Origin: a virus
Virus record (IMG/VR): IMGVR_UViG_3300045988_043480
Coordinates: 1-32,262 of that record
Direction: 5' to 3' (one strand)
DNA: 32,262 bases
Shown: positions 1-32,262 of the stretch, piece after piece
Layout: the number at the start of each line of letters is the position of its first letter
Position numbering within the stretch: position 1 is the first letter of the stretch
Translations under genes and position numbers: made by a program
The notes under the pieces: generated by a model
The model's input: only the letters and a program-made list of their open reading frames with translations
What the model was told of the DNA's origin: nothing
Databases searched by the model: none

Positions 1-119
1 ATTTTTTCTTCTTCGCGCGGGGATTGTTCTTGGGTTTTGTTCTCTTGGGTTTTGTTAGTCAAAACCTCGTTTTGGGGTAGGTCAAAAGCAGGTTTTGAGG
101 GGTCAAAAGCAGGTTTTGG
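1..119. repeat. Terminal direct repeat, identical to 32144-32262; indicates a circular or terminally redundant genome with unit length 32143 bp
   Basis: Both ends read attttttcttcttcgcgcgg...ggtcaaaagcaggttttgg. The minus-strand ORF stays in frame across the junction (440 + 472 nt = 912 = 3 x 304). Confidence 0.95.
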
Positions 120-2269: not shown

Positions 2270-2725
2270 ATGAAACTCATTCGCGAACCATTCGCATTCA
2301 GCCTCTTCATTCCCGGCATCCCCGCTAGTAAAGGCTCCTACCGTCCAATCACCGGCAGGAGCCGCACCACCGGCAAACCAGTAACCCGCCTCATACCAAT
2401 GGACAGGAAGGAACGCCCGTGGCGCGACCACGTGCGCGACACCATCCTCAGCCACAAACACCCAACCATCCCACCAAACTCATACATCAAGATAGAAACC
2501 ACGTTCTACCTCCCCCGCCCCAAAACCACCCCACCCCACAAACGCAAACACCCCACCGTCAAACCAGACATAGACAAACTCCAACGCGCCCTATACGACG
2601 CCATCACCGAAACCCACATCTGGCATGATGACTGCCAGATAACCGACGTAATCAGCCACAAACGCTACGCCGACGACACCCCCACCGGCGTATTCCTCAC
2701 GATCACATGGGAGCCGAACCAATGA
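2270..2725 (+). CDS. rusA: RusA-family Holliday junction resolvase
   Basis: IPGIPASKGSYRP near the N-terminus and KPDIDKLQRALYDAITETHIWHDDCQITDV match the RusA catalytic Asp-rich motif layout. Confidence 0.85.
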   Translation: MKLIREPFAFSLFIPGIPASKGSYRPITGRSRTTGKPVTRLIPMDRKERPWRDHVRDTILSHKHPTIPPNSYIKIETTFYLPRPKTTPPHKRKHPTVKPDIDKLQRALYDAITETHIWHDDCQITDVISHKRYADDTPTGVFLTITWEPNQ

Positions 2726-10806: not shown

Positions 10807-11469
10807 ATGGACATCGACGCAAGCGTAATCGACCAAGTGGGAGAAGCCACCTACGCGCGGTGGAAAGATGCCGCGCTCGCAGACCTCGCCAACATTCTAT
10901 GCCAAAAAGCCCTATTCCAGATCACGGATGATTACGTGGGAATCGTCGTAGGAGACGGTCGCCACGTAGCACTAATGGCATGGTACTCGGATGTGACCAA
11001 CGTGCAGACCACCGACGGCGTGAAACTCGATTACCGGGTGAACTACACTATGGGCGACGGGTGGACGCCCGAAACCAAGTACGCGAACTGCCTGACCATT
11101 GCGCAACGTCTCGCGGTTGGCACGGCAGTAACCGTGACCGGTACACACGGTTTCGCCAAACTGCCCGCCCCATTATCTTCGGTGCTGGCGGCGGTCATCG
11201 AGGCGGATCAGAGCATTCTTGAGCAGACCGACCGTCTCACGTCCAAGAGTATCGAGGATGTGAGCGTGAGTTACGCCACGGTCAACGAGACGGCAATGGA
11301 ACGTGCGTTGACGCCGTACCAGTCTCTTATCAACCAGTGGAGCCTATGCCGAAACGGCGGCAACAGTGGCGGTATTCTCTCCATGCCGCGCAAGCATCAT
11401 AATCTTCCGTGGTGGTTGAACGCTCAGGATTACGTGGGAGGTGACTACGCTTATGGCAGCGTTTTGTGA
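10807..11469 (+). CDS. Head-tail connector / adaptor candidate
   Basis: Assigned by position, directly after the capsid module. 220 aa with RBS GGAAGGAG. No strong motif recognised. Confidence 0.45.
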   Translation: MDIDASVIDQVGEATYARWKDAALADLANILCQKALFQITDDYVGIVVGDGRHVALMAWYSDVTNVQTTDGVKLDYRVNYTMGDGWTPETKYANCLTIAQRLAVGTAVTVTGTHGFAKLPAPLSSVLAAVIEADQSILEQTDRLTSKSIEDVSVSYATVNETAMERALTPYQSLINQWSLCRNGGNSGGILSMPRKHHNLPWWLNAQDYVGGDYAYGSVL

Positions 11470-13927: not shown

Positions 13928-14256
13928 TGAAGTCGTGGGATAGCCTGCTCACTCCCGCCGAACGGGAGAAGATGCGGAAATTCAAGCAGCAGGAACAAGC
14001 ACGCCGCCCGCTGCCGTCCGTTCGTATCCTCGCTGAACTCGGTGACATGTACGGGTGGCAGGCTATCCGCGACGTGCTGGAAAACAACGTTGACCCCGAC
14101 CTTATGATGCGACTTCTACGGGAGGGCCGGAACGTGCGGCGCAAGCATCTGGCCGACCAGTATCGCATGATGTTTGAGAGCATCGCCGCCGCTTTCACTA
14201 AGCATGGCGACCGCAAGATTAACGCGATCATCGAAAAACTCGGGAAGGACTCGTGA
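13927..14256 (+). CDS. Second tail assembly chaperone-position protein
   Basis: It sits in the -1 frame relative to 13574..13927 but has its own ATG (TAATG overlap) and an AAGGG RBS. Confidence 0.5.
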   Translation: MKSWDSLLTPAEREKMRKFKQQEQARRPLPSVRILAELGDMYGWQAIRDVLENNVDPDLMMRLLREGRNVRRKHLADQYRMMFESIAAAFTKHGDRKINAIIEKLGKDS

Positions 14257-16301
14257 TGGCCGACGCGACACTGACCCTAGATGCCGAGATCAACACCGGC
14301 GATTGGAACGCTGGCGTCAAGGATATTCAATCTGGTAGCAGGCAGATCGAGGAATCGGCGCGGCAGGCTGATGAAGCGTTGGAAGGCGTTGACAAGTCTG
14401 CTAGCAAGTCTTCCAGCGGGTTCGGTAAGTTCGGTGCCGCCGCTGGTGCCGTTGGCGGTCTGGTTTCCTCTGGTATTGGCATGGCTGTGGACGCCATTGC
14501 CGACCTTACCGGGGATATCGTGGAGGCGTCCGATTCGGCGGACAAGTTTAAAAGCACGTTGAACTTTGCCGGGTTGGATACGGGTACGATTGACGCGCTC
14601 ACGGCCAGTACTCAGGAATACGCCGACCAGACCGTGTATTCCATCAGTGATATTCGCAATGTCACGGCCCAGCTTGCCGCGAACGGCGTGCAGGGTTTCG
14701 ACCAGTTGGCTGAAGCCGCTGGCAATTTGAACGCGGTCGCCGGTGGCAACGCGGAAACTTTCAGCTCTGTAGGCATGGTGCTTACGCAGACCGCTGGCGC
14801 GGGCAAGCTCACTACCGAGAATTGGAACCAGTTGGCCGACGCCATACCGGGTGCTTCAGGCAAGCTTCAGGAAGCGATGCTGAAGAACGGCGCTTATACC
14901 GGGAACTTCCGCGACGCGATGGAGAAGGGCGAAATCTCAGCGGAGGAATTCAACAAAGCCATAATGGACTTGGGTATGACCGACGCCGCGAAGGAGGCCG
15001 CTACCAGTACGGCGACCATCGAGGGCGCTATGGGTAATCTGCAAGCGTCCGTGGTTGGCGTTGGTACGACGATTCTTGACCAGTTCAAAGGCCCGTTGAC
15101 TTCGGGCATCAGCATGTTGGCGCAGGGCATCAGCGGACTCTCTGGCGTGTTTACCGGGATGGTACAGACTATCGGCCCGATTCTATCGCAGATCGGCACC
15201 GTGTTCCAAACGGCTTTCGCACCCATTGGAACGATGATTACCACGCAACTGCTCCCCGCTTTGCAGCCGCTTATGATGGCGTTGCAGAATCTCGGGAGCG
15301 CAGTCATGCCCGTCATCATGACCGCGATCCAGACTATCGCGCCCGTGTTGGCAACCGTGGTGAGCAACGTCATCCAGACCATGACAGTCATATCCACGGC
15401 AGTGACTCCCGTAATCAACGGTATCGCCAGTGTGATTCAGGCCGTGCTGCCAGTCATCCAGTCAGTCTTCCAGACATGGGGAGCCAGTATTCAGGGCGTC
15501 ATCAACGCGGTTTTCCCGTTCATCCAGACCGTTATCGAATCGGTGATGAACGTAGTCAACGCGATTATCAGTACCGTTCTGGCGGCTATCAACGGCGACT
15601 GGTCTGGCGTTTGGGAAGGAATTCAGAGTATCGTTTCTAGCGTTTGGGACGGTATCCAGAATATTGTTTCTGGTGCCATCAATGCAGTGTCAGGCGTCAT
15701 ATCGAGCGTGCTGAGCGGCATCAGCAGTATTTTCAGCAGTGTGTGGAACGGCATCAAGGGCGCTGTGAGTGGCGCGTGGAACGGTATCACTAGTGCCGTG
15801 AGCAACGGGGTTAGCTCTATGATGAATTTCATCACCAGCATCCCCAGCAAAATCATGGGCGTGTTCAGTGGTGCCGGTTCATGGCTTCTCAGCGCTGGAA
15901 AGAACATCATTGATGGTCTGATTAACGGCATCACGAACGCCATCGGCGGTGCCATTTCGGCAGTCAAGGACGCTGTTGGCGGTATCATCGACGGCGCTAA
16001 GAGCCTGCTAGGCATCGCGTCCCCGTCCAAGGTGTTCGATCGTGAGATCGGTCGGATGATTCCGGCTGGTCTTGGGCGTGGCGTATCGGAGAACGTGCGT
16101 GCGGCCACTCGTCCGGTGGAGGACATGGTGAATTCGCTTCTGCCGTCGTCCATCGTGACTCCAATGCCGGTCATGTCTAACCCGGTGCCCATGAACGCGA
16201 ACAGTGGCCCGCGTGTGAACGCGCCTATTACCGTGAACGCGCTTGACCCGAACGCCGCCGCTCAAGAGACGGTGAGGGTGATTAATTTCCATTACGTGTG
16301 A
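14256..16301 (+). CDS. Tape measure protein
   Basis: About 681 aa, Ala/Gly/Ser-rich with a repetitive helical pattern (...VSGAINAVSGVISSVLSGISSIFSSVWNGIKGAVSGAWNGI...). The position is canonical. An alternative GTG start is at 14253. Confidence 0.9.
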   Translation: MADATLTLDAEINTGDWNAGVKDIQSGSRQIEESARQADEALEGVDKSASKSSSGFGKFGAAAGAVGGLVSSGIGMAVDAIADLTGDIVEASDSADKFKSTLNFAGLDTGTIDALTASTQEYADQTVYSISDIRNVTAQLAANGVQGFDQLAEAAGNLNAVAGGNAETFSSVGMVLTQTAGAGKLTTENWNQLADAIPGASGKLQEAMLKNGAYTGNFRDAMEKGEISAEEFNKAIMDLGMTDAAKEAATSTATIEGAMGNLQASVVGVGTTILDQFKGPLTSGISMLAQGISGLSGVFTGMVQTIGPILSQIGTVFQTAFAPIGTMITTQLLPALQPLMMALQNLGSAVMPVIMTAIQTIAPVLATVVSNVIQTMTVISTAVTPVINGIASVIQAVLPVIQSVFQTWGASIQGVINAVFPFIQTVIESVMNVVNAIISTVLAAINGDWSGVWEGIQSIVSSVWDGIQNIVSGAINAVSGVISSVLSGISSIFSSVWNGIKGAVSGAWNGITSAVSNGVSSMMNFITSIPSKIMGVFSGAGSWLLSAGKNIIDGLINGITNAIGGAISAVKDAVGGIIDGAKSLLGIASPSKVFDREIGRMIPAGLGRGVSENVRAATRPVEDMVNSLLPSSIVTPMPVMSNPVPMNANSGPRVNAPITVNALDPNAAAQETVRVINFHYV

Positions 16302-18392: not shown

Positions 18393-19089
18393 CGCCGACG
18401 CGACCGCACGCCAGTTCTCAGACATCAAACGCCAATTGCAGGAATTGCCGCCGAGCATCGTCAACAGCGTTAAACCCATGGTCGATCAGATCACGGAGAT
18501 GTATGAGGAAGTGCAGACGCTGACGAACAATCTTGACCAGCGTGTGCAGGAAAGCATCACCCGCAACAGCTATACCCGTGCCGAGATTGACGTTAAAACT
18601 CAGACGTGGAACTGGGGTGTGTTGGCTCCCAATCGTGGCGGTACGGGTATCGCCAACGCCTATGACAATGTGTTTACGGTCGGCCCGTGGCGTGCCGTGT
18701 GGGTGTTGTCTGACGGTACTATGGGCACGTCTCAGTCGGTTCGTGCGGTGAAAACCGATATTGTGGACGCGGACGATTATATTCCGGTTGAATCGCTCCG
18801 TAAGGTGAAGTGGTGCATATATCGGATGACGGATGACAAGAACCTGAATCTTGATGACGCTCAGCCGTTGGTCGGTATGATCGCGGACGATATGGACGAA
18901 AACGGGTTGGGTTTCTTCTGTGAATACGATGCAGACGGCACTCTTACGGGCATCAACTACCCCATGCTCGGTGTGGCGGCGCTCAGGCTTGCTCAGCTGG
19001 TGGCGGACGAATTGGACGCGCTCAAGTCGAGGGTTGACGAACTATCCTCTAGCGCGGATAAAATGGGCGTAGACGATTCGGAGGATTGA
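18361..19089 (+). CDS. Tail fibre protein with a C-terminal intramolecular chaperone (Peptidase_S74-like) domain
   Basis: SQSVRAVKTDI ... LVGMIADDMDENG ... DADGTLTGINYPMLGVAALRLAQLVADELDALKSRVDEL follows the S-x-x-R-x-K / G-x-IA / coiled-coil layout of endosialidase-chaperone domains. Confidence 0.7.
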   Translation: MPSKFKFSLDSADATARQFSDIKRQLQELPPSIVNSVKPMVDQITEMYEEVQTLTNNLDQRVQESITRNSYTRAEIDVKTQTWNWGVLAPNRGGTGIANAYDNVFTVGPWRAVWVLSDGTMGTSQSVRAVKTDIVDADDYIPVESLRKVKWCIYRMTDDKNLNLDDAQPLVGMIADDMDENGLGFFCEYDADGTLTGINYPMLGVAALRLAQLVADELDALKSRVDELSSSADKMGVDDSED

Positions 19090-19973
19090 TTATGGCTATT
19101 ATCATGCACCCGTTGACCGCTCGGAACGGTAACCCGGAGTATACGGCTGACGATTACCGTCACGCCATCAACCCTCTATTATTGCCGTCCGATGGTAGCG
19201 CGTTCAACGGGGTGTCTGGCATCCGTTACGGTTCCCCGAGTCCTCTGGTAACGGTGAGCGGCCTGAGGGCGACGGTCAAGGCCCATTGCGGCACCATCAG
19301 TCCGTGGGATGGACTCGGCGCGTACACCTACGCCATCACCACCAACACAACCGTTAATCTTGCCGACTCGACTAACAATTACAAAATTGCTATCACGGTG
19401 GAAGACCCGTCACAGTCGCACGGTACGACTCCGCGCGGCCAGACCCAAGTGTTCCCGGCTGGCACGCCTGACTCGAATATCAATGGTCTGGTGATCGCCG
19501 AGGTAAACGCCGGTGTCGCCAGCGATGTGGCTCCGATTATTCGCAATAACGCTATCCTGATGGCGCGTGATTTTGAACAGCTCAACACCATTGCCGCGAT
19601 GGACGGGCAGGAAGCGGTGACCATTGCCGATAATGCGCATTATGTGAGGAATGACGGAACGTGGGAGGATGTCGTTTATCATGTGAGGAACGGCAATTGG
19701 GAGATGTGGATTAATTCCATGTCCCGCACAGGCATGGTAGTCACATCGGGCAACCATCTGAACGGCGGTTCATGGGACTCGTTGCAGGCACCGTTTACCA
19801 TCCCCGAATACGCGCGGCCCTCGCGAAGCATTCAGAATGCGGCGGTTACTCAGAACGGAGGCAGCACCACCGCCGTTCTGACGATTAATGAGGAAGGTAA
19901 AATCTCATTGAGCAATCAAGGTGCATCAGGTTCCACCAATACCCTGATGGCGTCCTTGACATGGGTGTATTAG
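19086..19973 (+). CDS. Receptor-binding / minor tail protein; constant N-terminal part plus C-terminal variant A
   Basis: 295 aa and last in the tail module. It contains the IADNAHYVRNDGTWEDV junction motif at the left inverted repeat. Confidence 0.6.
   Translation: MIMAIIMHPLTARNGNPEYTADDYRHAINPLLLPSDGSAFNGVSGIRYGSPSPLVTVSGLRATVKAHCGTISPWDGLGAYTYAITTNTTVNLADSTNNYKIAITVEDPSQSHGTTPRGQTQVFPAGTPDSNINGLVIAEVNAGVASDVAPIIRNNAILMARDFEQLNTIAAMDGQEAVTIADNAHYVRNDGTWEDVVYHVRNGNWEMWINSMSRTGMVVTSGNHLNGGSWDSLQAPFTIPEYARPSRSIQNAAVTQNGGSTTAVLTINEEGKISLSNQGASGSTNTLMASLTWVY
19628..19666. repeat. Left arm of an inverted repeat inside the receptor-binding gene
   Basis: cgataatgcgcattatgt (19628-19645) is identical to the reverse complement of 20269-20286. 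Extended to 39 nt, the arms match at 34/39. The core ATAATGCGCATTAT is itself palindromic. Confidence 0.85.
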
Positions 19974-19985
19974 CGGAGACAACTG

Positions 19986-20286
19986 TTAATACTCCCAGCA
20001 AACGGTGATGCGGCCACTCTGCAATGTGTTTTCCGACCCATACAACACGAAAACCTGCCCAGACGCGTTGATGCTGAATGATGCCGCACGATTCGGATAA
20101 TCAGGGTGAAAGAACGTCAACGGTACGGTACTGCCGGAGCCAAGCAACACCATACCGTAAGCGTGACTGATACCGCCGACATCCCCAACAGTACCGACGA
20201 CTGTATTACTTTCGACGCTCCCGAACGTGATTGTCTTACGTTTCAGCTTCCACGTTCCGTCGGTTCTGACATAATGCGCATTATCG
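19986..20286 (-). other. Promoterless, start-less alternative receptor-binding C-terminal cassette (variant B), tail-to-tail with variant A
   Basis: The minus strand reads DDNAHYVRTDGTWKLKRKTITFGS...AASFSINASGQVFVLYGSENTLQSGRITVCWEY*. This parallels variant A (...AVLTINEEGKISLSNQGASGSTNTLMASLTWVY*). The two stop codons are 12 nt apart. Confidence 0.65.
20248..20286. repeat. Right arm of the inverted repeat
   Basis: Reverse complement cgataatgcgcattatgtcagaaccgacggaacgtggaa matches 19628-19666 at 34/39, with the same codon phase (GAT AAT GCG CAT TAT GT). Confidence 0.85.
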
Positions 20287-20306
20287 TCTCGGTCTAATAT
20301 AAGACT

Positions 20307-20675
20307 ATGACAGAAATTCTCACGGCAATCATCGGCGTAGGCGGCGTGGCACTCGGCGGACTCATAACATGGCTAGCCAACCGCCGGTCAGACCTGACAA
20401 GCGCATATCAGGCACTGGTTTCCGCGCAAGGGGATATGAAACGGCAGATCGACGCCCAAGACCAGAAAATAGACACGCTAATCAAGAACCGGGATGCGTT
20501 GCAATACACGATTGACCTTGAGACGGGGTATATTCGCGCGTTGGGACACTGGCTGTCAAAGTTCTGCGAGATCATCGAACCTGAATTTTTGGCGAATCAT
20601 CCTAAACCGTCGTTGCCCGATGACCTACGCGACCGGATTGCATCGCTTGAGGAACTGGCTGGAGATAATGACTAG
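20307..20675 (+). CDS. Membrane-anchored coiled-coil protein (holin-like, spanin-like or lysis regulator candidate)
   Basis: N-terminal TM segment ILTAIIGVGGVALGGLITWLA followed by a coiled-coil region. 122 aa. Confidence 0.45.
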   Translation: MTEILTAIIGVGGVALGGLITWLANRRSDLTSAYQALVSAQGDMKRQIDAQDQKIDTLIKNRDALQYTIDLETGYIRALGHWLSKFCEIIEPEFLANHPKPSLPDDLRDRIASLEELAGDND

Positions 20676-20693
20676 CTGAGCCTAATACGTATT

Positions 20694-20755
20694 ATCGGTA
20701 ATAATAATATCGATTCGTTCGATGATCGGTAATAATAATATCGATTCGTTCGATG
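20694..20755. repeat. Perfect 2 x 31-bp AT-rich tandem repeat in the intergenic region
   Basis: atcggtaataataatatcgattcgttcgatg occurs at 20694-20724 and again at 20725-20755. Each unit has the internal palindrome ATCGA-N5-TCGAT. Confidence 0.95.
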
Positions 20756-20911: not shown

Positions 20912-22051
20912 ATGGCTTTGAACGGTATCGACATCAGCAATTGGCAGGCTGGTATCGACTTGTCTGCCGTACCGTGTGATTTCGTCATCAGCAAGGCGAC
21001 GGAAGGATGCTGGTACGTGTCAGCGTATTGCGCTCGACAAGTGGAACAGGCATTAAATCTGGGGAAATGCGTGGGCGTATACCATTACGCCAACGGCGGT
21101 AACGCCGTCTCCGAAGCCGACTACTTCGTGAACAATTGCGCGAATTGGGTCGGCAAAGTCGTATGGTGCTTGGACTGGGAAGCACAGGGTAACGGACTGT
21201 TCGGGTCTGGCGCGTCTGCTCAGCAGTGGATTAGGTCTTTCTGCGATCGAGTGTACGAGCGTACAGGCTCCCAGCCTATCGTCTACGTGCAAGCGTCCAT
21301 GCTTAACGACGTTCAGAACATTGGCGATCGTGGATTGTGGGTAGCTCAGTACGCGAATATGAACGCTACGGGGTATCAGGATACGCCGTGGAACGAAGGC
21401 GCTTATGCGTGCGCCATCCGCCAGTATTCGTCCAATGGACGCCTACCCGGATACTCAGGCAGTCTTGACCTCAACAAGTTCTACGGTGATGTGAACGCCT
21501 GGAACGCATATAAGGCGGGTCATTCGAGTGTGACCAACGTGCCGACACCTTCCACTCCAGCTCCGTCCACTCCCGCGTCCGGCACGTACACCGTGTGCTC
21601 CGGTGACACGCTGAGCGGTATCGCGTCGATGTATGGGACTAGCTGGCAGGTGCTGGCACAGATCAATAATCTGTCTAACCCTGATCTGATTTATCCCGGT
21701 CAGGTGCTGAAGATCAATGGCACTGCCAATACAGTTCCGTCCGGTAGCGGTACCTATACGGTGCAGTCCGGTGACACGCTGAGCGGTATCGCCGCCAAGT
21801 ACGGGACTTCGTGGCAGACTCTCCAGCAGCTTAACAGCATTGCCAACGCTAATCTGATCTATCCGGGTCAGGTGCTGAAGCTGCCGGGCGGCGCACCGTC
21901 ACCGTCCGTTACCACGTACACTATCCAGTCCGGTGACACATTGAGCGGTATCGCCGCCAAGTACGGTACCAGTGTTTCCAGTCTGGTGGCGTTGAACGGT
22001 ATCGCCAACCCTGATGTGATCTACGCGGGCCAGACGATCCGTATCAAGTAG
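20912..22051 (+). CDS. Endolysin: GH25 muramidase with three C-terminal LysM repeats
   Basis: [32 protein letters not shown] is a GH25 hallmark. Three copies of [42 protein letters not shown] follow. Start chosen 8 nt after AGGAGG rather than the track start at 20786. Confidence 0.9.
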
Positions 22052-22073: not shown

Positions 22074-22349
22074 ATGAACATGAATACTGGTGAGCCGACC
22101 AAGGACACCGCGATCAATAACGAAGTGCCGGACGGTAATGATAATTACGTGCCGACGTTCAACGCCGCGACCCGTAGGTGGGCGTATCTGGTTTCCGGCT
22201 TGGTCGGTATCGCCGGTGCGGTGCTGAGTTTCGTGAGCGCCGTGCCGGACATGCCGTCGTGGGTGGCTGTGATGGGTGGCGCTTGCGCTCTGATCGGCTC
22301 CGGCGTGGCTGGAATGTTCGGCGTCCACTACGCAGGTATCTCCAAGTGA
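22074..22349 (+). CDS. Holin candidate (two TM segments)
   Basis: 91 aa with AGGAGG RBS. TM segments WAYLVSGLVGIAGAVLSFVSAV and WVAVMGGACALIGSGVAGMFGV. It is adjacent to the endolysin gene. Confidence 0.6.
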   Translation: MNMNTGEPTKDTAINNEVPDGNDNYVPTFNAATRRWAYLVSGLVGIAGAVLSFVSAVPDMPSWVAVMGGACALIGSGVAGMFGVHYAGISK

Positions 22350-22356
22350 GGTTACC

Positions 22357-23001
22357 ATGAGTATCGCATCCGACTTGTTCCGCACCGTCACCGTCAAGAT
22401 TCACGACATCAGCCAGCAACTCCCGTACATCGTTGTTAATCAGGCGGACGATAACGGCAAGATCATCCGTTTCGTCCCATTGGATCACGGACAGAAGGTC
22501 ACTGGGTTCACCGGTGCCCGCTTGTATTATCCTCCGCGATCTGGCGACCCGTATGGTGATTACGTGACTGGTGTTGAGTCTGACGGTGCTTGGGACTTCG
22601 CTATTCCTGTGGGAGTCTTGAGTGTGGGACGGGTCGGATGCAATCTGTCTTTTATCGACGGGGATGGCGAAACGTATTCGCGGAACGTCGTGTTTCTGGT
22701 GGAACCGGCGGTGTCGGGTGTTTTCGACCCGGAGGACGGTCAGCAGACCCGTATCGACAAGATCGTCGGCACAGTGCAGACTGCCGCAGATACGGCTATC
22801 GACAGCATCAACGAAACCGCTGATAACGCAGTAGAGAAGATCAATCAAACGGTTAATGATGCGGCGGAGGCTGTGGGCGAGCGCGTCTTCTACGCATACC
22901 CGTACCCGCCCGACCCCGGGTGCTGTGTGATAGAGTACCCGGCCTTTCTCGGATACAATGGGAATACGGGCGTGTACATCAATCTAGAGCCGGAGGCATA
23001 G
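22357..23001 (+). CDS. BppU-N-like baseplate/fibre anchoring protein
   Basis: VKIHDISQQLPYIVVNQADDNGKIIRFVPLDHGQKVTGFTGARLYY resembles the BppU N-terminal domain. The central segment TAADTAIDSINETADNAVEKINQTVNDAAEAV is coiled-coil-like. Confidence 0.55.
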   Translation: MSIASDLFRTVTVKIHDISQQLPYIVVNQADDNGKIIRFVPLDHGQKVTGFTGARLYYPPRSGDPYGDYVTGVESDGAWDFAIPVGVLSVGRVGCNLSFIDGDGETYSRNVVFLVEPAVSGVFDPEDGQQTRIDKIVGTVQTAADTAIDSINETADNAVEKINQTVNDAAEAVGERVFYAYPYPPDPGCCVIEYPAFLGYNGNTGVYINLEPEA

Positions 23002-23004
23002 CAC

Positions 23005-23934
23005 ATGGCAGACATCTCCACAGGCACGCAGCGTGGCATCGTCCCTTTCGTGGACGAAACCACAGGACGCCTGCCCGACCAGTATCTTCCGCAGGGAGTC
23101 ATCGACCTCCAAGGCGACCTCGAACAGGCAGTGACGAACGCGGGCGCGAGCGCCACGGCGGCCAAGGCGAGCGCCGAGTCCGCAACCCAGTCCGCGTCTG
23201 CGGCCGCGCAGTCGGCTGAGTCCGCGTCCACCTCGGCGTCTCAGGCAGGCGAGTCCGCGTCTCAGGCGAGCGGCTTCGCGTCCACCGCGTCTCAGGCGGC
23301 GACCACCGCGACGGGTGCGGCCTCCAACGCCTCGGCGTCCGCCACCGTCGCGCAGCAGAGCGCCTCGGAGGCTTCGGCGTCCGCTTCCGCCGCGAAGGCT
23401 TCGGAGACGAACGCGAAGAATTCCGAGAGCAGTGCTGCGGGCAGCGCATCTACCGCCCAGTCAGCCGCGAGCAGTGCAAGCGCGTCCGCCGCCGCTGCGA
23501 AAACATCTGAGAATAATGCGAAGACGTTGGAGACTAACGCGAAAACATCTGAAACGAACGCGAAGACCTCAGAAACGAACGCGGCGTCGAGCGCCCGGAC
23601 CGCACAGACCGCCGCTGATACGGCGAAAGAGATCGCGGACAATTTCGATGTGACCGCCAGCGCTACAGCCAGTGCGCCGGGTGGTGCTGCATCTGTCAAC
23701 GTCACCAAGAAAGGCACATCGTATAATCTAGCGTTTACCATTCCCCGAGGCGCACAAGGGCCGAAGGGCGACCCCGGCCCCAAGGGCGACCCCGGCCCCA
23801 AGGGCGACCCCGGAGATTTGACCACCGTGGCGCACGACGCCACGTTGACCGGCGACGGTACGAGCGGTACACCGCTGGGGAGTGGCGGACGGTACGGCAA
23901 TCAACAATTTTGTCCACTTTTCTGCACCAATTGA
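23005..23934 (+). CDS. Tail fibre, N-terminal and shaft part (Ala/Ser-rich heptad-like repeats plus a collagen-like GxY tract). The frame ends shortly after a G4 tract.
   Basis: SAxxAxxSAxxS-type repeats, ETNAKTS x3, and GAQGPKGDPGPKGDPGPKGDPGD. After ...TLTGDGTSGTPLG the frame reads nonsense-like sequence (SGGRYGNQQFCPLFCTN*). Confidence 0.7.
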   Translation: MADISTGTQRGIVPFVDETTGRLPDQYLPQGVIDLQGDLEQAVTNAGASATAAKASAESATQSASAAAQSAESASTSASQAGESASQASGFASTASQAATTATGAASNASASATVAQQSASEASASASAAKASETNAKNSESSAAGSASTAQSAASSASASAAAAKTSENNAKTLETNAKTSETNAKTSETNAASSARTAQTAADTAKEIADNFDVTASATASAPGGAASVNVTKKGTSYNLAFTIPRGAQGPKGDPGPKGDPGPKGDPGDLTTVAHDATLTGDGTSGTPLGSGGRYGNQQFCPLFCTN

Positions 23935-24292
23935 CTTTAACGACATTGTGGACAACGGGTTTCATGGAATCAATTTGGGGTCTTTTGAGACAGATGTGCT
24001 GAACGCGCCGACTGATTTGTATCATAAACCCGCTCGCTTGTTCATGATTGTCTCTAGCTGCGGTTTTAGGAACAGCTCTAATGTAAAAACTCAAATACTG
24101 GTAAATCGCGGCGGTGAGGAAATCGACTCGTCTGTATACATAAGGCACCGATATAACGCAGGCTGGTCTACTTGGCGTAAATTTGCGTTCACGTCCGACA
24201 TTCCCTCTTTGTCGAAGTATGTCCCTCTCTCCACCTATCAGGCCCTTGAAACACGCGTCCAAGCCCTCGAAGCAAAACTAGCGAACCAGTGA
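23882..24292 (+). CDS. Tail fibre distal (receptor-binding) part in the +1 frame, probably the continuation of 23005..
   Basis: The frame is open from 23849. Removing one G from GGGG (23877-23880) gives ...GTPLGVADGTAINNFVHFSAPIDFNDIV... There is no spaced RBS before the GTG at 23882. Confidence 0.6.
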   Translation: MADGTAINNFVHFSAPIDFNDIVDNGFHGINLGSFETDVLNAPTDLYHKPARLFMIVSSCGFRNSSNVKTQILVNRGGEEIDSSVYIRHRYNAGWSTWRKFAFTSDIPSLSKYVPLSTYQALETRVQALEAKLANQ

Positions 24293-24304
24293 AGGAGCAT
24301 AACC

Positions 24305-24736
24305 ATGTTCGAAACGTTCCAAACCATCATCAACGCCGGAGGCTACGACCTCGCGGACCTCACCGAGCGCATCAAGACGTTGTATGCGATGGGCGAGCTG
24401 TCCGAGGAGGAGATGAAGCAGCTCCTCGAACAGGCACAGGATAACGCCAATCAGGACGCCATGCTGCCCGACGTGTCGGAGCGTGTGGGCGCGTTGGAGA
24501 CTCGTATGGCCGCGGTCGAGGAGCGTGTCGGCAAGCTCGAAGCGGGCGGCGTGGAGCCGGGCGAACCCGAGGAACCCGTGGACGAGTGGCCGGAATGGGT
24601 GCGCCCCACCAGCAAGGACACGCAGTATAACAAGGGTGACAAGGTGACGTTCAACGGCCAGCACTACGTGTGCGTGAAGAACAATGTCAGCGCGAGCCCT
24701 GATGAAGACCCGAAGCGCTGGACGCTCGTGGAGTAA
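24305..24736 (+). CDS. Coiled-coil protein with a C-terminal CBM5/12-like carbohydrate-binding module (fibre accessory or adhesin)
   Basis: WPEWVRPTSKDTQYNKGDKVTFNGQHYVCVKNNVSASPDEDPKRWTLV fits the W...Y..GD.V.(F/Y)NG..Y.C........P......W pattern of CBM5/12. Confidence 0.55.
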   Translation: MFETFQTIINAGGYDLADLTERIKTLYAMGELSEEEMKQLLEQAQDNANQDAMLPDVSERVGALETRMAAVEERVGKLEAGGVEPGEPEEPVDEWPEWVRPTSKDTQYNKGDKVTFNGQHYVCVKNNVSASPDEDPKRWTLVE

Positions 24737-25563: not shown

Positions 25564-25893
25564 CTAGTCTTTAGTCAGAATGTCGTACCCGAGGTGTTCG
25601 GCCAACCGCAACCGGTATTGCTTCTGTGGTTTGCGGCGTCCGGTTTCCCACATGGCGATCACGTTCGGGCTGGCTACGCCGATTCGTTCGGCGAGTTCCG
25701 CCTGTGAATACCCGTGGCGTAGCCGCCAGTATTTGATGCACTGGCCGATGGTTACGCGGTCGCTGATGGTCTCGTAGTCAACGGGGATGTTGCCGACGTT
25801 TTGTCGGGTGAAGAACTGGCCTGTTTGGCTGTCTTGTTCCACGGTGACTTCGTGGCCGTTGATTACGGTTTTGATCTTGTCTTGCTTGCGCAT
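25564..25893 (-). CDS. XRE-family HTH transcriptional regulator with an N-terminal extension
   Basis: IGQCIKYWRLRHGYSQAELAERIGVASPNVIAMWETGRRKP is a canonical Cro/CI-type HTH. Its own promoter carries the TGATATA-N5-TATATCA palindrome. Confidence 0.8.
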   Translation of the reverse strand: MRKQDKIKTVINGHEVTVEQDSQTGQFFTRQNVGNIPVDYETISDRVTIGQCIKYWRLRHGYSQAELAERIGVASPNVIAMWETGRRKPQKQYRLRLAEHLGYDILTKD

Positions 25894-26902: not shown

Positions 26903-27215
26903 CGGTTTCCTCCTTTTCTTCGGTTTCGTCATCGTCCACCAGATAATCGTCAAGGCTGATATCTTGCGGCTCGAAGTAGATCAACCCGTCCAGCAAGATC
27001 ATCGGGTAACGCACGATTACCCCTTGGTCTTTGGCAATGGTGCGTATCGCTCTGGCGGTAGGGCTGCCCGACGATACGATGCGGAGCCTACGATTCATTT
27101 GCTGGGCGTATACGCGGCACGACACCAGATAACCGGCGTCCTGCCACTTGCACGTAGGGCACCCGTCGAACAGGACGAACATGTCCCGGCTTTCCAAGAT
27201 CGTTGCGGTCTTCAT
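26892..27215 (-). CDS. Glutaredoxin/NrdH-like thioredoxin-fold protein with an acidic tail
   Basis: MFVLFDGCPTCKWQ contains the CPxC redox motif in a beta-strand/helix context. The protein ends ...ETDEA. Confidence 0.5.
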   Translation of the reverse strand: MKTATILESRDMFVLFDGCPTCKWQDAGYLVSCRVYAQQMNRRLRIVSSGSPTARAIRTIAKDQGVIVRYPMILLDGLIYFEPQDISLDDYLVDDDETEEKEETDEA

Positions 27216-28123
27216 CAGAACGTCACCCCCAATGCGTTGGCCAGCACATCCGAGATATGGAGAGTGGCCAACTGGCGACGCTTATGCTCGGCAATCTCCG
27301 TTTCAATATCCTTGCGATAGACGGGGATGACTTGATGGTGCGCCGCCCCGACCACGCGCGGGTCAAACATCGAGAAGTAGAGGACTTCCAACGAGTCGCA
27401 CACCACGAAGTACTGGAGTACCTGAGCTTTGTACTGCTCGGGGATGAAGTCGAGGCCAGTCGCCTTGCCGTCCAGCGTGTACTCGGGCAACACCTGTTCG
27501 ATCACGTCCACCAGTTCAGGTTTCAGGTTGGCGATGTGGGTTCGCATGGCGTCCGTGTGCATCATCCACGGCACCACGGTCTGCAAGTGGTAGGCGGAGC
27601 CGAGCGACTTGCATTCGATGGCCCACGTCGGCTTCTCAACGTTCTCGTAGGCGTCCGGACTGCAAGCGATACGGTCGTCGTCGTCACTCTCCCAGATACC
27701 GCAGTCGGTCACGCAATCGCCGGGGTCGAAGCCAAGCACGTTGAGCGTGAGCTGGATGTTCTCGGGTTCGAGACGGTGGCCGCGTTCCATCGGCGGTTCA
27801 CCGTCCGCTGGTTCGGCCCACAGTTCCGCGACAAACTTCCAGAAGTCCACGCCGACCTTCAGCCGCTTGTTCTTCGCTTCGGCGTCCACGATCTTCTCGT
27901 CGTAGTTCTGAGCCTTCGCGTAATACTCATTGGCTTTCTCGGGCGTCTTCGCCTTCTTGGCCTGTTCCAGCGCCTTGTCTCGGTACTCCACGAGTTTCTG
28001 CACGTCGGTCTGGGCGTAGTGTTCCAAGGCGAGTCCGCCGCTTTTGGTGCCGGTGATACGGCCCATGCGTTCATCGAGCCATGCTTCCGTTTCGGTGGCT
28101 TGCGATACGTTGATGATCTTCAT
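27215..28123 (-). CDS. YqaJ-like (lambda Exo-type, PD-(D/E)XK) recombination exonuclease
   Basis: Start MKIINVSQATETEAWLDERMGRITGTKSGG after GAAAGGA. The catalytic region is ACSPDAY...WAIECKS. Confidence 0.8.
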   Translation of the reverse strand: MKIINVSQATETEAWLDERMGRITGTKSGGLALEHYAQTDVQKLVEYRDKALEQAKKAKTPEKANEYYAKAQNYDEKIVDAEAKNKRLKVGVDFWKFVAELWAEPADGEPPMERGHRLEPENIQLTLNVLGFDPGDCVTDCGIWESDDDDRIACSPDAYENVEKPTWAIECKSLGSAYHLQTVVPWMMHTDAMRTHIANLKPELVDVIEQVLPEYTLDGKATGLDFIPEQYKAQVLQYFVVCDSLEVLYFSMFDPRVVGAAHHQVIPVYRKDIETEIAEHKRRQLATLHISDVLANALGVTF

Positions 28124-28182
28124 TGGTGTTGTCCTTTCGGTTGGGGTGTGGGCGGGTGACGAGTCCCGCCCACAGGTATCCA

Positions 28183-28533
28183 TCACGCGAAGCGCGGAGC
28201 ATACTGGTGGATGATGGAGCGAATCTCCTTGAACAGATTCCACGCGGTATCTTGCAGAACGCTTTCCGGGGCGTCGATGGAGTCGAGCGCTTCGGAGTAT
28301 TCCACGCATCCGTCCGTGTAGATCGGATCGTCGCTTTCCGTCCACCAGAAGATAGAGAACAGGAAAACGTGGTTTTCCACGTCCTCGGTGACTCGGGCGC
28401 GCAGCCGGGTATCAGTGAACGTGATGATCGCCGTATCATACGGTTCCCGTTCCGATTCCCAATGGATGCCGCTGACTTTATCGAAGTCAAACACATACTG
28501 GTTGATGACGGTGAAGAGGTTGATGCTGTTCAT
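28183..28533 (-). CDS. Hypothetical protein (116 aa)
   Basis: Start MNSINL, 6 nt after AAGGAG. It is preceded by promoter cassette copy b. Confidence 0.55.
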   Translation of the reverse strand: MNSINLFTVINQYVFDFDKVSGIHWESEREPYDTAIITFTDTRLRARVTEDVENHVFLFSIFWWTESDDPIYTDGCVEYSEALDSIDAPESVLQDTAWNLFKEIRSIIHQYAPRFA

Positions 28534-29812: not shown

Positions 29813-30412
29813 TCAGATTCGGGTGTGGGAGATTGCGTTCATAAGGTTGTCTAGATCGGCTTGGGTGAGTCCACGCCATCCCCTGACCTGACGGTTAAGA
29901 GTGCCGTTGATAAACTCGCCGCGCGCCTCGGACGGGATATTATGGGCCTTCATCGCTTGGACAAGCTCGGCGTACTGTTCCGCGCTTATGGGACGGTCAG
30001 CATTCTCGTAACGCTGTTTCGCATACGCGCCGTCATCGTCCTTGTCAGGGAAGATGCCCAACACTGCGTAGAGACTGTAGCGGCGGGCGTAGGTGATGGC
30101 GCTGCCGACCTGCTGGGGGTCGCCGGTGACGAAGAACGGGTAGGAGCAGGCGACCATCAGGTCTTTATCATCGAAGATGATGGTCTCCACCTTTCCGATG
30201 ACCTGCCGCGCTTCTCCCTCGTTGGAGAACGTTACGCGCTGGCTGAACCCCAGCCCGTGCTTCTCGAACACGGGTTTGATGGTCTTGAGGATCGTGGCGA
30301 GGTTGAGGTACTTGTAAGTCCGGTTGCCCGCCTGCGCTGTTTCGTCGGTGACGAAGTTGGGCACCTCGTTGAGGACTTTCATGAACCTTGTGTAGAGGTT
30401 GTTTTCCATCAC
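29813..30412 (-). CDS. erf: ERF-family single-strand annealing protein
   Basis: YKYLNLATILKTIKPVFEKHGLGFSQ and GSAITYARRYSLYAVLGIFPDKDDDG are ERF superfamily signatures. Confidence 0.85.
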   Translation of the reverse strand: MMENNLYTRFMKVLNEVPNFVTDETAQAGNRTYKYLNLATILKTIKPVFEKHGLGFSQRVTFSNEGEARQVIGKVETIIFDDKDLMVACSYPFFVTGDPQQVGSAITYARRYSLYAVLGIFPDKDDDGAYAKQRYENADRPISAEQYAELVQAMKAHNIPSEARGEFINGTLNRQVRGWRGLTQADLDNLMNAISHTRI

Positions 30413-31725: not shown

Positions 31726-32262
31726 ATTCGGCACGCCATCGCCGCCGCTCTCGGGAAAGAACTCACGCTCCAGCGCCTCCACTCCACCAGTGGCACCCCA
31801 ATACGCACGCCGCGCCCGCAACGTGGTCGCCACGTCAGCGGACATGGAATCGGGAAGCCTCCGAGCCATCCAATTCGACAACTGGGCTTCGCTTCGCTGA
31901 TCCTGCTTCCGAACCCTCCAATTAACCGCGTTGGCCAGCCACACGGGCAAGGTGCGCACGTACTGCAATGGCGTACCCTGGCAGGACTCCACGAATCGTT
32001 TCGCGGCCCTCATAAGCGCGTCGGCACCGACTTCATCGAACGCCTGATTGAAATACCGCAAAAGTTCGTTCGATACCCTGCACTTCTTCGGCCACAAGTC
32101 CATAAGCGCCTTGAGCGTCTCCGATGAATGGCAGGCGACTGTGATTTTTTCTTCTTCGCGCGGGGATTGTTCTTGGGTTTTGTTCTCTTGGGTTTTGTTA
32201 GTCAAAACCTCGTTTTGGGGTAGGTCAAAAGCAGGTTTTGAGGGGTCAAAAGCAGGTTTTGG
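31672..32262 (-). CDS. C-terminal part of the wrap-around replication initiator. Bases 32144-32262 duplicate 1-119.
   Basis: The frame is open to the window edge. It reads ...LTNKTQENKTQEQSPREEEKITVACHSSETLKALMDLWPKK... and is continuous with the minus-strand frame of 1..440. Confidence 0.65.
   Translation of the reverse strand, partial: PKPAFDPSKPAFDLPQNEVLTNKTQENKTQEQSPREEEKITVACHSSETLKALMDLWPKKCRVSNELLRYFNQAFDEVGADALMRAAKRFVESCQGTPLQYVRTLPVWLANAVNWRVRKQDQRSEAQLSNWMARRLPDSMSADVATTLRARRAYWGATGGVEALEREFFPESGGDGVPNLTQQPNSDIMGISSDRA
32144..32262. repeat. Second copy of the 119-bp terminal direct repeat
   Basis: Base-for-base identical to 1-119 by direct reading. Confidence 0.95.

Follow-up and report, generated by a model that had tools for sequence, protein, structure and literature searches.

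A dif-like site inside a receptor-binding protein gene of gut phages suggests a tail switch served by host XerC/XerD

How could a tailed phage invert the end of its receptor-binding gene when no recombinase is recognizable in its genome? The question is raised by a locus in IMG/VR record IMGVR_UViG_3300045988_043480, positions 1-32,262 (the whole 32,262-nt stretch, here called the window), where the gene of a receptor-binding protein (RBP) faces a second, silent C-terminal cassette on the opposite strand and the two are enclosed by an inverted repeat. The repeat lies within the reading frame and resembles dif, the target of the bacterial recombinases XerC and XerD. We regard a DNA-inversion switch of the RBP run by the XerC/XerD of the host as the best model of this locus and as probable, if well short of certain.

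The RBP gene lies on the plus strand, from an ATG at 19092 (or a TTG at 19086) to 19973, and its translation reads ...AVTIADNAHYVRNDGTWEDV...LTWVY*. In its current state (19092..19973) it joins a constant part, residues 1-179, to cassette A, residues 180-293. On the minus strand, the stretch from 20300 to 19986 translates as ILDRDDNAHYVRTDGTWKLK...ITVCWEY* (the junction part is also given as ...DDNAHYVRTDGTWKLK) and contains the silent cassette B (19986..20285), which begins DNAHYVRTDGTW and comprises 99 codons and a stop, the latter 12 nt from the stop of the plus-strand gene. Cassette B has no start codon: ATG, GTG, and TTG are absent from its frame from the upstream stop down to 20153. The inverted-repeat arms (19628-19667 and 20247-20286) are 40 nt long and complementary at 35 of 40 positions (88%), with 18 nt exact, and the codon phase is identical in both. 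Within them, the exact 17-mer GATAATGCGCATTATGT is found once per strand, at 19629-19645 (plus) and 20269-20285 (minus), and has no other match in the genome even when three mismatches are allowed (chance expectation, 0.17). The original prediction, which had read the locus as an invertible receptor-binding cassette, was borne out in its description of an inverted repeat around in-frame, tail-to-tail C termini and of an opposite-strand cassette that lacks a start codon.

Each arm of the repeat contributes to a 28-bp site. Site 1 (19623..19650, plus strand), which encodes I-A-D-N-A-H-Y-V-R-N at the junction of the constant and variable parts, consists of a XerC-type arm, ATTGCCGATAA, the center TGCGCA, and a XerD-type arm, TTATGTGAGGA. 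Site 2 (20264..20291, minus strand) is inverted relative to it and reads CGAGACGATAA, TGCGCA, TTATGTCAGAA; the two centers are identical. From these sites, the invertible segment is predicted to span about 635 bp (19640..20274), made up of cassette A, the 12-nt spacer, and cassette B.

The RBP gene is preceded, in order, by genes for the tape measure, Dit (SPP1_Dit), a 386-aa protein, and a 242-aa protein, and is followed by that of a GH25-LysM lysin. An AlphaFold2 model of the A-type protein, built on 42 homologues, had a predicted local distance difference test (pLDDT) score of about 80-94 over residues 180-293, and in Foldseek searches the cassette A domain matched the RBP heads of phages p2 and TP901-1 with a probability of 1.00 over about 100 residues (target template modeling score, 0.5-0.6). 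Since its head matches those of p2 and TP901-1, the last tail gene is, on the modeled fold, an RBP gene, in keeping with the receptor-binding role first assigned to the locus. The model of cassette B was all-beta and of low confidence (pLDDT, 65), and a fold search with it returned only nonsignificant matches to fiber tips. A BLASTP alignment of the A and B C termini was confined to the junction, and profile-profile comparison with hhalign (E value, 0.068) gave no significant similarity beyond it. A and B had been said to share both a junction motif and a C-terminal architecture; the motif is indeed common to them, and these comparisons neither support nor contradict a common architecture.

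We then asked what relatives of the phage do at this locus. The relatives examined comprised 78 RBP loci in IMG/VR, and site statistics were taken from 75 expressed and 33 intact silent sites. The N-terminal 179 residues, ending DNAHYVR..GTW, are conserved in all relatives and are followed, after the common junction, by at least 10 unrelated C termini across about 75 related gut-phage contigs. Downstream of the expressed gene, relatives carry one or two start-less cassettes on the opposite strand, each of which opens with the junction. A "position 1" cassette lies tail to tail with the expressed gene, as in the window, and a "position 2" cassette lies beyond a gene for a 122-aa membrane/coiled-coil protein, where in the window a degraded site is all that remains. 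Types E, G, D, J, F, and A' of the cassette each turned up in the expressed slot as well as in the silent slot.

Four pairs of relatives are inverted with respect to each other at this locus. Between L076 and L013, a segment of 830 bp that carries two cassettes tail to tail, in exactly the layout of the window, is cleanly inverted, with J on and C off in one state and C on and J off in the other. Between L002 and L022, the flanks are collinear at 92.6% and 94.8% identity, the 1583 nt between them are inverted at 93.9% identity, and the end points of the inversion overlap the junction site. The inversions in L030/L031 and L045/L038 are bounded by the same junction site, and these three larger inversions span 1.3-1.6 kb. 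Over all four pairs, identity is 87-95% in the collinear flanks and 87-94% over the main part of the inverted segment. The 121/122-aa gene flips with the larger segment (10999-11364 on the minus strand in L002; 11279-11644 on the plus strand in L022). Inversions at junction sites thus truly occur in this phage family, and the invertible-cassette layout predicted for the window is one that its relatives use.

The silent cassettes are maintained as coding sequence under purifying selection. For type G, the ratio of nonsynonymous to synonymous substitutions (dN/dS) is 0.31 among silent copies versus 0.40 among expressed copies, and for the silent cassette of type B it is 0.11 at a dS of 0.45, which implies that B must be translated at least sometimes. 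No cassette is more strongly conserved than type B, yet alone among the common types it has not been seen in the expressed position in public data. The 33 protein clusters that contain it are all short open reading frame (ORF) calls with inconsistent starts.

The nearest cultured relatives of these phages infect Bifidobacterium (B. adolescentis and B. asteroides), and the host of the roughly 32-kb siphophage in the window is very probably a member of that genus. The B. adolescentis phage BA720P3 and the bee-gut B. asteroides phages are syntenic with the window and have neither the inverted repeat nor a silent cassette. In BA720P3 (locus L079, about 18690-18750), the RBP junction reads GCCGACGG TTGCGA TTATGTCAGAA, a XerD-arm-like half with no XerC arm, partner site, or silent cassette. 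Relatives of the RBP were absent from a set of genomes holding one per species for 185,579 species, and these phages therefore do not appear as prophages.

Given that inversion occurs in the family, what enzyme performs it? The first 119 nt of the window (1-119) and its last 119 nt (32144-32262) are an identical direct repeat, an assembly overlap from which the genome is taken to be complete and either circular or terminally redundant. Neither Pfam, run on the plausible genes with the exception of the tape-measure gene (14253..16301) and several short ORFs, nor PHROGs, run on the nonstructural genes, turned up a serine or tyrosine recombinase, and the scanned genes gave neither a Resolvase-family nor a phage-integrase-family match. 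Antisense shadow ORFs were judged noncoding by eye and stood outside these scans. Genes that did match Pfam or PHROGs families encode terminase, portal-MuF, capsid, Dit, lysin, RusA, ERF, and a YqaJ/RecE-like exonuclease, together with an HNH nuclease, a ParB-like nuclease, two helix-turn-helix (HTH) proteins, and a CBM_5_12 protein. The 78 related loci also contain ORFs of 140 aa or more without a homologue in the window; none of these looked invertase-like by eye, and they were judged, again by eye, to be TnpB-like insertion sequence (IS) elements, methylases, and an alternative lysin. The earlier statement that this complete genome carries no recombinase therefore held for the scanned genes.

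The sequence of the junction suggests a candidate. A dif site consists of two 11-bp arms and a 6-bp central region in which the strands are cut and exchanged (PMC5357621). In a scan of bacterial genomes, at least 119, mostly of Actinobacteria, each held one match to the 17-mer GATAATGCNCATTATGT, and the flanks of these matches gave a 28-bp consensus, cgCCGATAATGCACATTATGTCAa.T, by which we identify these chromosomal matches as the actinobacterial dif site. Kono et al. predicted the dif of Frankia alni as CACGCCGATAATGCACATTATGTCAAGT and gave that of E. coli as GGTGCGCATAATGTATATTATGTTAAAT (PMC3025954). A Fur-box-like operator was also considered for the genome matches and was rejected, as the flanks had yielded the full 28-bp dif consensus and the literature agreed. 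No Bifidobacterium was among the matches listed for the 17-mer, as would be expected because the center of its dif differs. The predicted dif sites of this genus are GCCGATAATGTACGTTATGTCAGATTTC in B. adolescentis, GCCGATAATGTACGTTATGTCAGATTAG in B. longum NCC2705, and TCCGATAATGTACGTTATGTCAGATTAG in B. animalis and B. infantis, with GCCGATAATGTACGTTATGTCAGAT.. common to B. adolescentis and B. longum (PMC3025954 supplement). Parsed into its parts, the predicted Bifidobacterium dif has the XerC arm ..GCCGATAA, the center TGTACG, and the XerD arm TTATGTCAGAT.

The consensus of the phage family, GCCGATAA-TGCNCA-TTATGTCAGAA, matches the arms of the Bifidobacterium dif at 18 of 19 positions with the exact 6-bp spacing, and the centers of the expressed sites agree with that of the host at only 2-4 of 6 positions. 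Among the 75 expressed sites, the XerC arm matches at 8/8 positions in 53, and the XerD arm matches at 10/11 in 28 and at 9/11 in 26. In the window, site 1 matches 16 of the 19 arm positions and site 2 matches 17 (with 10/11 in its XerD arm); the next-best place in the genome scores 14/19. We read the junction sites as mimics of the Bifidobacterium dif, taking the probable host and the published prediction of its dif as the reference.

Codon usage at the junction indicates that the DNA itself is constrained. Across the 75 expressed and 33 silent sites, the junction reads GAT AAT GCN CAT TAT GTN AGA, with arm positions 4-7 and 12-17 invariant or nearly so. At the site, T is the last base of every D, N, H, and Y codon, while the T-ending fractions for these residues in late genes are 0.36, 0.23, 0.40, and 0.33, respectively. 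The junction Arg is encoded by AGA in 41/75 expressed and 22/33 silent sites, a codon that makes up 1.9% of Arg codons in late genes. The retention of T-ending codons and of the rare AGA argues for a constraint on the DNA and not on the protein alone.

The 6-bp center behaves differently from the arms. Partner sites of tyrosine recombinases must in general have the same center. Between phage genomes, the center occurs as TGCCCA, TGCTCA, TGTCCA, and TGCGCA, central positions 8-9 being polymorphic. Within genomes, it is identical in 25 of 31 site pairs versus 9.8 expected, and none of 20000 permutations reached 25. This concordance is what Xer-exploiting elements need of their partner sites and is correlative. 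Rare variants that partners share (GTC, CCT, and TAT) all fall inside the center, whereas left-arm variants are tied to location and right-arm variants move with the cassette. Within-genome concordance is nearly absent from the linker that follows the XerD arm (307 versus 286 identical positions; P = 0.03). Partner sites typically share about 16-17 nt of exact homology, with as little as 5-10 nt in some pairs; a length of 16-17 nt is short for homologous recombination.

Two other descriptions of the site were considered. The 2-bp core of a serine invertase, suggested by the covariation of positions 8-9, was a poorer fit, as the rare shared variants at positions 10-11 and both arms fit dif. The 14-bp palindrome ATAATGCGCATTAT, to which the original prediction had drawn attention, is present at the junction of the window; it was rejected as the key feature because GCG is one allele of a variable center, and what is conserved is the pair of arms around that center.

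Based on these observations, the 28-bp junction would be a coding sequence (A-D-N-A-H-Y-V-R-N) and a dif mimic at once. The housekeeping tyrosine recombinases XerC and XerD of the host would bind the arms of both inverted sites, and strand exchange inside the identical centers would invert the approximately 635-bp segment at 19640-20274, so that head domain B would take the place of head domain A in frame. The predicted recombinant junctions are ...ATTGCCGATAATGCGCATTATGTCAGAACCGACGGAACGTGGAAGCTG (also ...GCCGATAATGCGCATTATGTCAGAACCGACGG...), joining the constant part (Rc) to B, and ...GACCGAGACGATAATGCGCATTATGTGAGGAATGACGGAACGTGGGAGGAT. Matching centers within a genome would be required for the switch to function, and because the phage center differs from the host TGTACG, the phage sites would recombine with each other and not with the chromosome. 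How Xer would be activated without FtsK is a matter for speculation; perhaps XerC alone performs an exchange, with the resulting Holliday junction resolved by replication or by the phage RusA. At cer, a Holliday junction formed by XerC alone is completed by another resolvase (PMC5357621), and TLCphi encodes its own Xer activator (PMC9226527). The broader proposal, to which we give slightly less credence and which we hold at a little above even, is that widespread gut Bifidobacterium phages that lack an integrase and are probably lytic have written a dif mimic into the RBP frame and borrow XerC/XerD, which universally resolve chromosome dimers, for a receptor-changing inversion, with the private center serving as the address. 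Of the three options that the original prediction had offered (an enzyme acting in trans, a frozen relic, or an unrecognized enzyme), action in trans fits best, given that the sites mimic host dif, the target of XerC/XerD.

Several points weigh against a Xer-driven switch in this phage. At dif, Xer recombination ordinarily depends on FtsK at the septum, accessory proteins are required at plasmid sites, and no Xer activator such as XafT was recognized in the phage. A search of 5.8 billion proteins did not place cassette B in the expressed slot in any of its 33 clusters, and four samples whose near-identical phages have the A/B layout of the window (SRR27029607, SRR8956663, SRR13300732, and SRR27029577; RBP amino acid identity, 89%) are all A-on. 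The XerD arm on the A side of the window matches at 8/11 positions, below the family consensus, and 6 of 31 site pairs have mismatched centers. Some of the junction motif (D..DYVR.G.W) also occurs, as a protein feature, in the RBPs of cassette-less phages. The inverted genome pairs are 5-13% diverged, so that their inversions are evolutionary events and not proof of rapid switching. Finally, the Bifidobacterium dif sites are computational predictions for a host that we infer, and inversion in this genome and the binding of Xer are themselves predicted.

Alternatively, inversion may be performed in trans by a dedicated invertase of the host or of a coresident prophage, either a serine enzyme of the Hin/Gin type or a tyrosine enzyme of the Rin/Tsr type, with the likeness to dif being coincidental or ancestral. 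We consider this unlikely. It would account for a phage with no recombinase of its own, trans action has already been proposed for another bifidophage locus (PMC6109161), and matching at the middle of the site is compatible with the 2-bp overlap of a serine invertase as well. However, it leaves unexplained why 18 of 19 dif-arm positions are copied at the exact 6-bp spacing and why the rare AGA is retained. The site is also unlike rix, which has 0 matches in the window, and unlike the 8-bp site CAGGGTTA, whose single copy (21676) is away from the locus, and dependence on an accessory enzyme would restrict switching to some hosts only.

Just as unlikely, in our judgment, is that the A/B pair of the window is a frozen relic, with B carried along passively or exchanged only by recombination between coinfecting phages. 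The failure to see B in the expressed slot, the A-on state of all close relatives, and the 8/11 match of the A-side XerD arm to the host fit this explanation, as does decay elsewhere in the locus. Beyond cassette B lies the gene of the 122-aa protein (20307..20675, plus strand), which has an N-terminal membrane helix and a coiled coil and matches phrog_1397 (unknown function). Next to it, exactly where relatives hold their second silent cassette, is a relic third site (20675..20702, minus strand; ATTACCGATAA TACGTA TTAGGCTCAGC) that forms part of a repeat pair; it has kept its XerC-type arm and a palindromic center, its XerD-type arm is destroyed, and its cassette is lost. The relic is embedded in a tandem repeat of two 31-nt copies (20691..20752, plus strand), by which its XerC-arm-like half and its outer flank are duplicated; that flank is conserved beside the position 2 sites of relatives. 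On the other hand, a relic would hardly be expected to show a dN/dS of 0.11 at a dS of 0.45 in cassette B or identical centers and 18 exact nt between sites 1 and 2, and the same two-cassette layout is inverted between L076 and L013.

Homologous recombination or template switching between the short repeats, through host RecA or through the ERF, YqaJ-type exonuclease, and RusA of the phage, seems slightly less probable again. In its favor, the phage does encode these three proteins (the exonuclease being YqaJ/RecE-like), the repeats of the window extend to 40 nt at 88%, and linker positions are slightly more often identical within genomes than expected (P = 0.03). The short exact homology between partner sites (typically about 16-17 nt, 5-10 nt in some pairs) speaks against it, and concordance is concentrated in the 6-bp center instead of extending across the repeat. 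In addition, such a process does not require arms that copy dif and are conserved across diverged genomes against codon bias. It is very improbable that the dif-like sites serve mainly for Xer integration at host dif, with lysogeny achieved without an integrase in the manner of CTXphi and other integrative mobile elements exploiting Xer (IMEX; PMC5357621) and with inversion as a by-product, since, for all that the dif mimicry, the missing integrase, and a repressor-like HTH gene (25564..25893) would suit it, no relative of the RBP was found among the 185,579 species genomes, the sites lie inside the RBP frame as inverted pairs that bracket alternative C termini, and the center agrees with that of host dif at only 2-4/6 positions. 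None of these four explanations accounts for dif mimicry together with covariation of the center as well as Xer recombination does.

A switch run by XerC/XerD would share its logic with known tail-fiber inversion systems and differ from them in its enzyme. As in Mu Gin/G, P1 Cin/C, and p15B Min (PMC6109161), alternative C termini are joined in frame by inversion at short coding sites, and the silent cassettes have no start codon of their own. Those systems have an adjacent serine invertase, gix/cix-type sites, and a Fis-dependent enhancer, whereas here no invertase was found and the site is of the dif type; gix, cix, and hix are 26-bp sites with a 2-bp crossover, in contrast to the 11-6-11 architecture of dif seen in the phage site. 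The protein also differs, being here a siphophage RBP with a p2/TP901-1-type head. The Rin shufflon of Bifidobacterium and Eggerthella prophages (PMC6109161, PMC8778435) is similar in its actinobacterial gut hosts, its constant (Rc) and variable (Rv) parts, its TP901-1-like heads, its proposed tyrosine-recombinase chemistry, and its capacity for several cassettes. Rin, however, has its own tyrosine invertase gene beside the cassettes, where none was found here; its 11-bp rix site, TTCCCTAACCC, has 0 matches in the window at up to one mismatch; and its carriers are prophages, unlike the integrase-less phages described here, which were not found as prophages. The comparison with Mu Gin, P1 Cin, and Rin made in the original prediction is thus apt for the logic of the switch and fails for its parts, there being no adjacent invertase and no gix or rix site.

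Closer in one respect are the tRNA-Met bifidoprophages 689b-1 and Bb423phi2, in which Mavrich et al. already reported a recombinase-less inverted tail locus: a region of about 500 bp is inverted without a flanking recombinase, and an invertase acting in trans was proposed (PMC6109161). These phages are temperate, the function of the gene is unknown, no enzyme was named, and the 8-bp site CAGGGTTA was implicated, which in the window has its one copy, at 21676, outside the locus; here, by contrast, the site points to XerC/XerD. Elements that exploit Xer, such as the IMEX CTXphi, VGJphi, TLCphi, and the gonococcal island, the plasmid sites cer and psi, and the XerC/D-like sites of Acinetobacter plasmids (PMC5357621, PMC9226527, PMC5790767), resemble the present phages in having no recombinase of their own, in carrying sites of 28-30 bp that copy the arms of host dif, and in using the central region to set partners. 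They serve integration, excision, multimer resolution, and cointegrate formation, any phages in this group being filamentous or satellite phages; the event proposed here is instead an inversion, in frame, within a structural gene that belongs to a tailed phage. A Xer homologue of Ureaplasma has been proposed to invert DNA at short inverted repeats and so change surface proteins, which is similar, although it concerns a bacterial locus and the cell's own enzyme rather than a virus that mimics dif (PMC3599477). The viral invertons of PMC13501310 proved unrelated. By its sequence features, then, the locus would group with Xer-exploiting elements and not with Gin, Cin, Min, or Rin. The literature searched held no example of a tailed phage in which Xer drives an inversion.

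Other features of the genome are recorded here for completeness. The genome carries a recombination kit without an integrase, consisting of an excisionase-like HTH_17 protein, RusA, a YqaJ/RecE-like exonuclease, and ERF (607-789, 2270-2725, 27215-28345, and 29813-30412). The RusA-type Holliday-junction resolvase (2270..2725, plus strand) matches Pfam RusA at 2e-16 and phrog_140. At 28-155 lie four iteron-like repeats of 26 nt (GGGTCAAAAGCAGGTTTTGGGG-type, each internally dyad-symmetric) and a 14-nt repeat present twice; this region could be an origin or packaging site. A second set of fiber-like genes is found at 22357-24736, downstream of the lysin and a putative holin (22074..22349), and encodes proteins of 214 aa, 309 aa (Ala/Ser-rich, with collagen-like GPKGDP repeats), 136 aa, and 143 aa, the last with a CBM_5_12 carbohydrate-binding domain. 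A scan of the locus for promoters and terminators gave nothing informative. Among relatives, ORFs of 375-421 aa that resemble TnpB (an IS200/IS605-family accessory protein), as judged by their N-terminal sequence only, occur in L041 (minus strand, near the end of the locus) and in L029 at about 15495.

In sum, the prevailing view has been that programmed inversion of tail fibers depends on a dedicated invertase next to the cassette. Use of host XerC/XerD by the phages described here would, if true, make them the first tailed phages to exploit Xer and the first case in which Xer is turned to in-frame inversion instead of integration. The known users of Xer, so far filamentous phages, satellite phages, and plasmids, would then include tailed phages, and its known uses would extend from integration to in-frame rearrangement. 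It would also provide a concrete candidate for the trans-acting invertase that was proposed for bifidophages in 2018. If host XerC/XerD acts in this way, any phage could gain a host-range switch by means of two short dif-like sequences, and every such switch would escape searches based on recombinase genes. In human gut data the family is plentiful, with 1848 protein clusters homologous to the RBP in public metagenomes, and read-level tests are therefore possible at once. The finding may also bear on host prediction, with mimicry of dif arms serving as a host signature, and on the difficult propagation of Bifidobacterium phages, whose stocks would mix receptor specificities.

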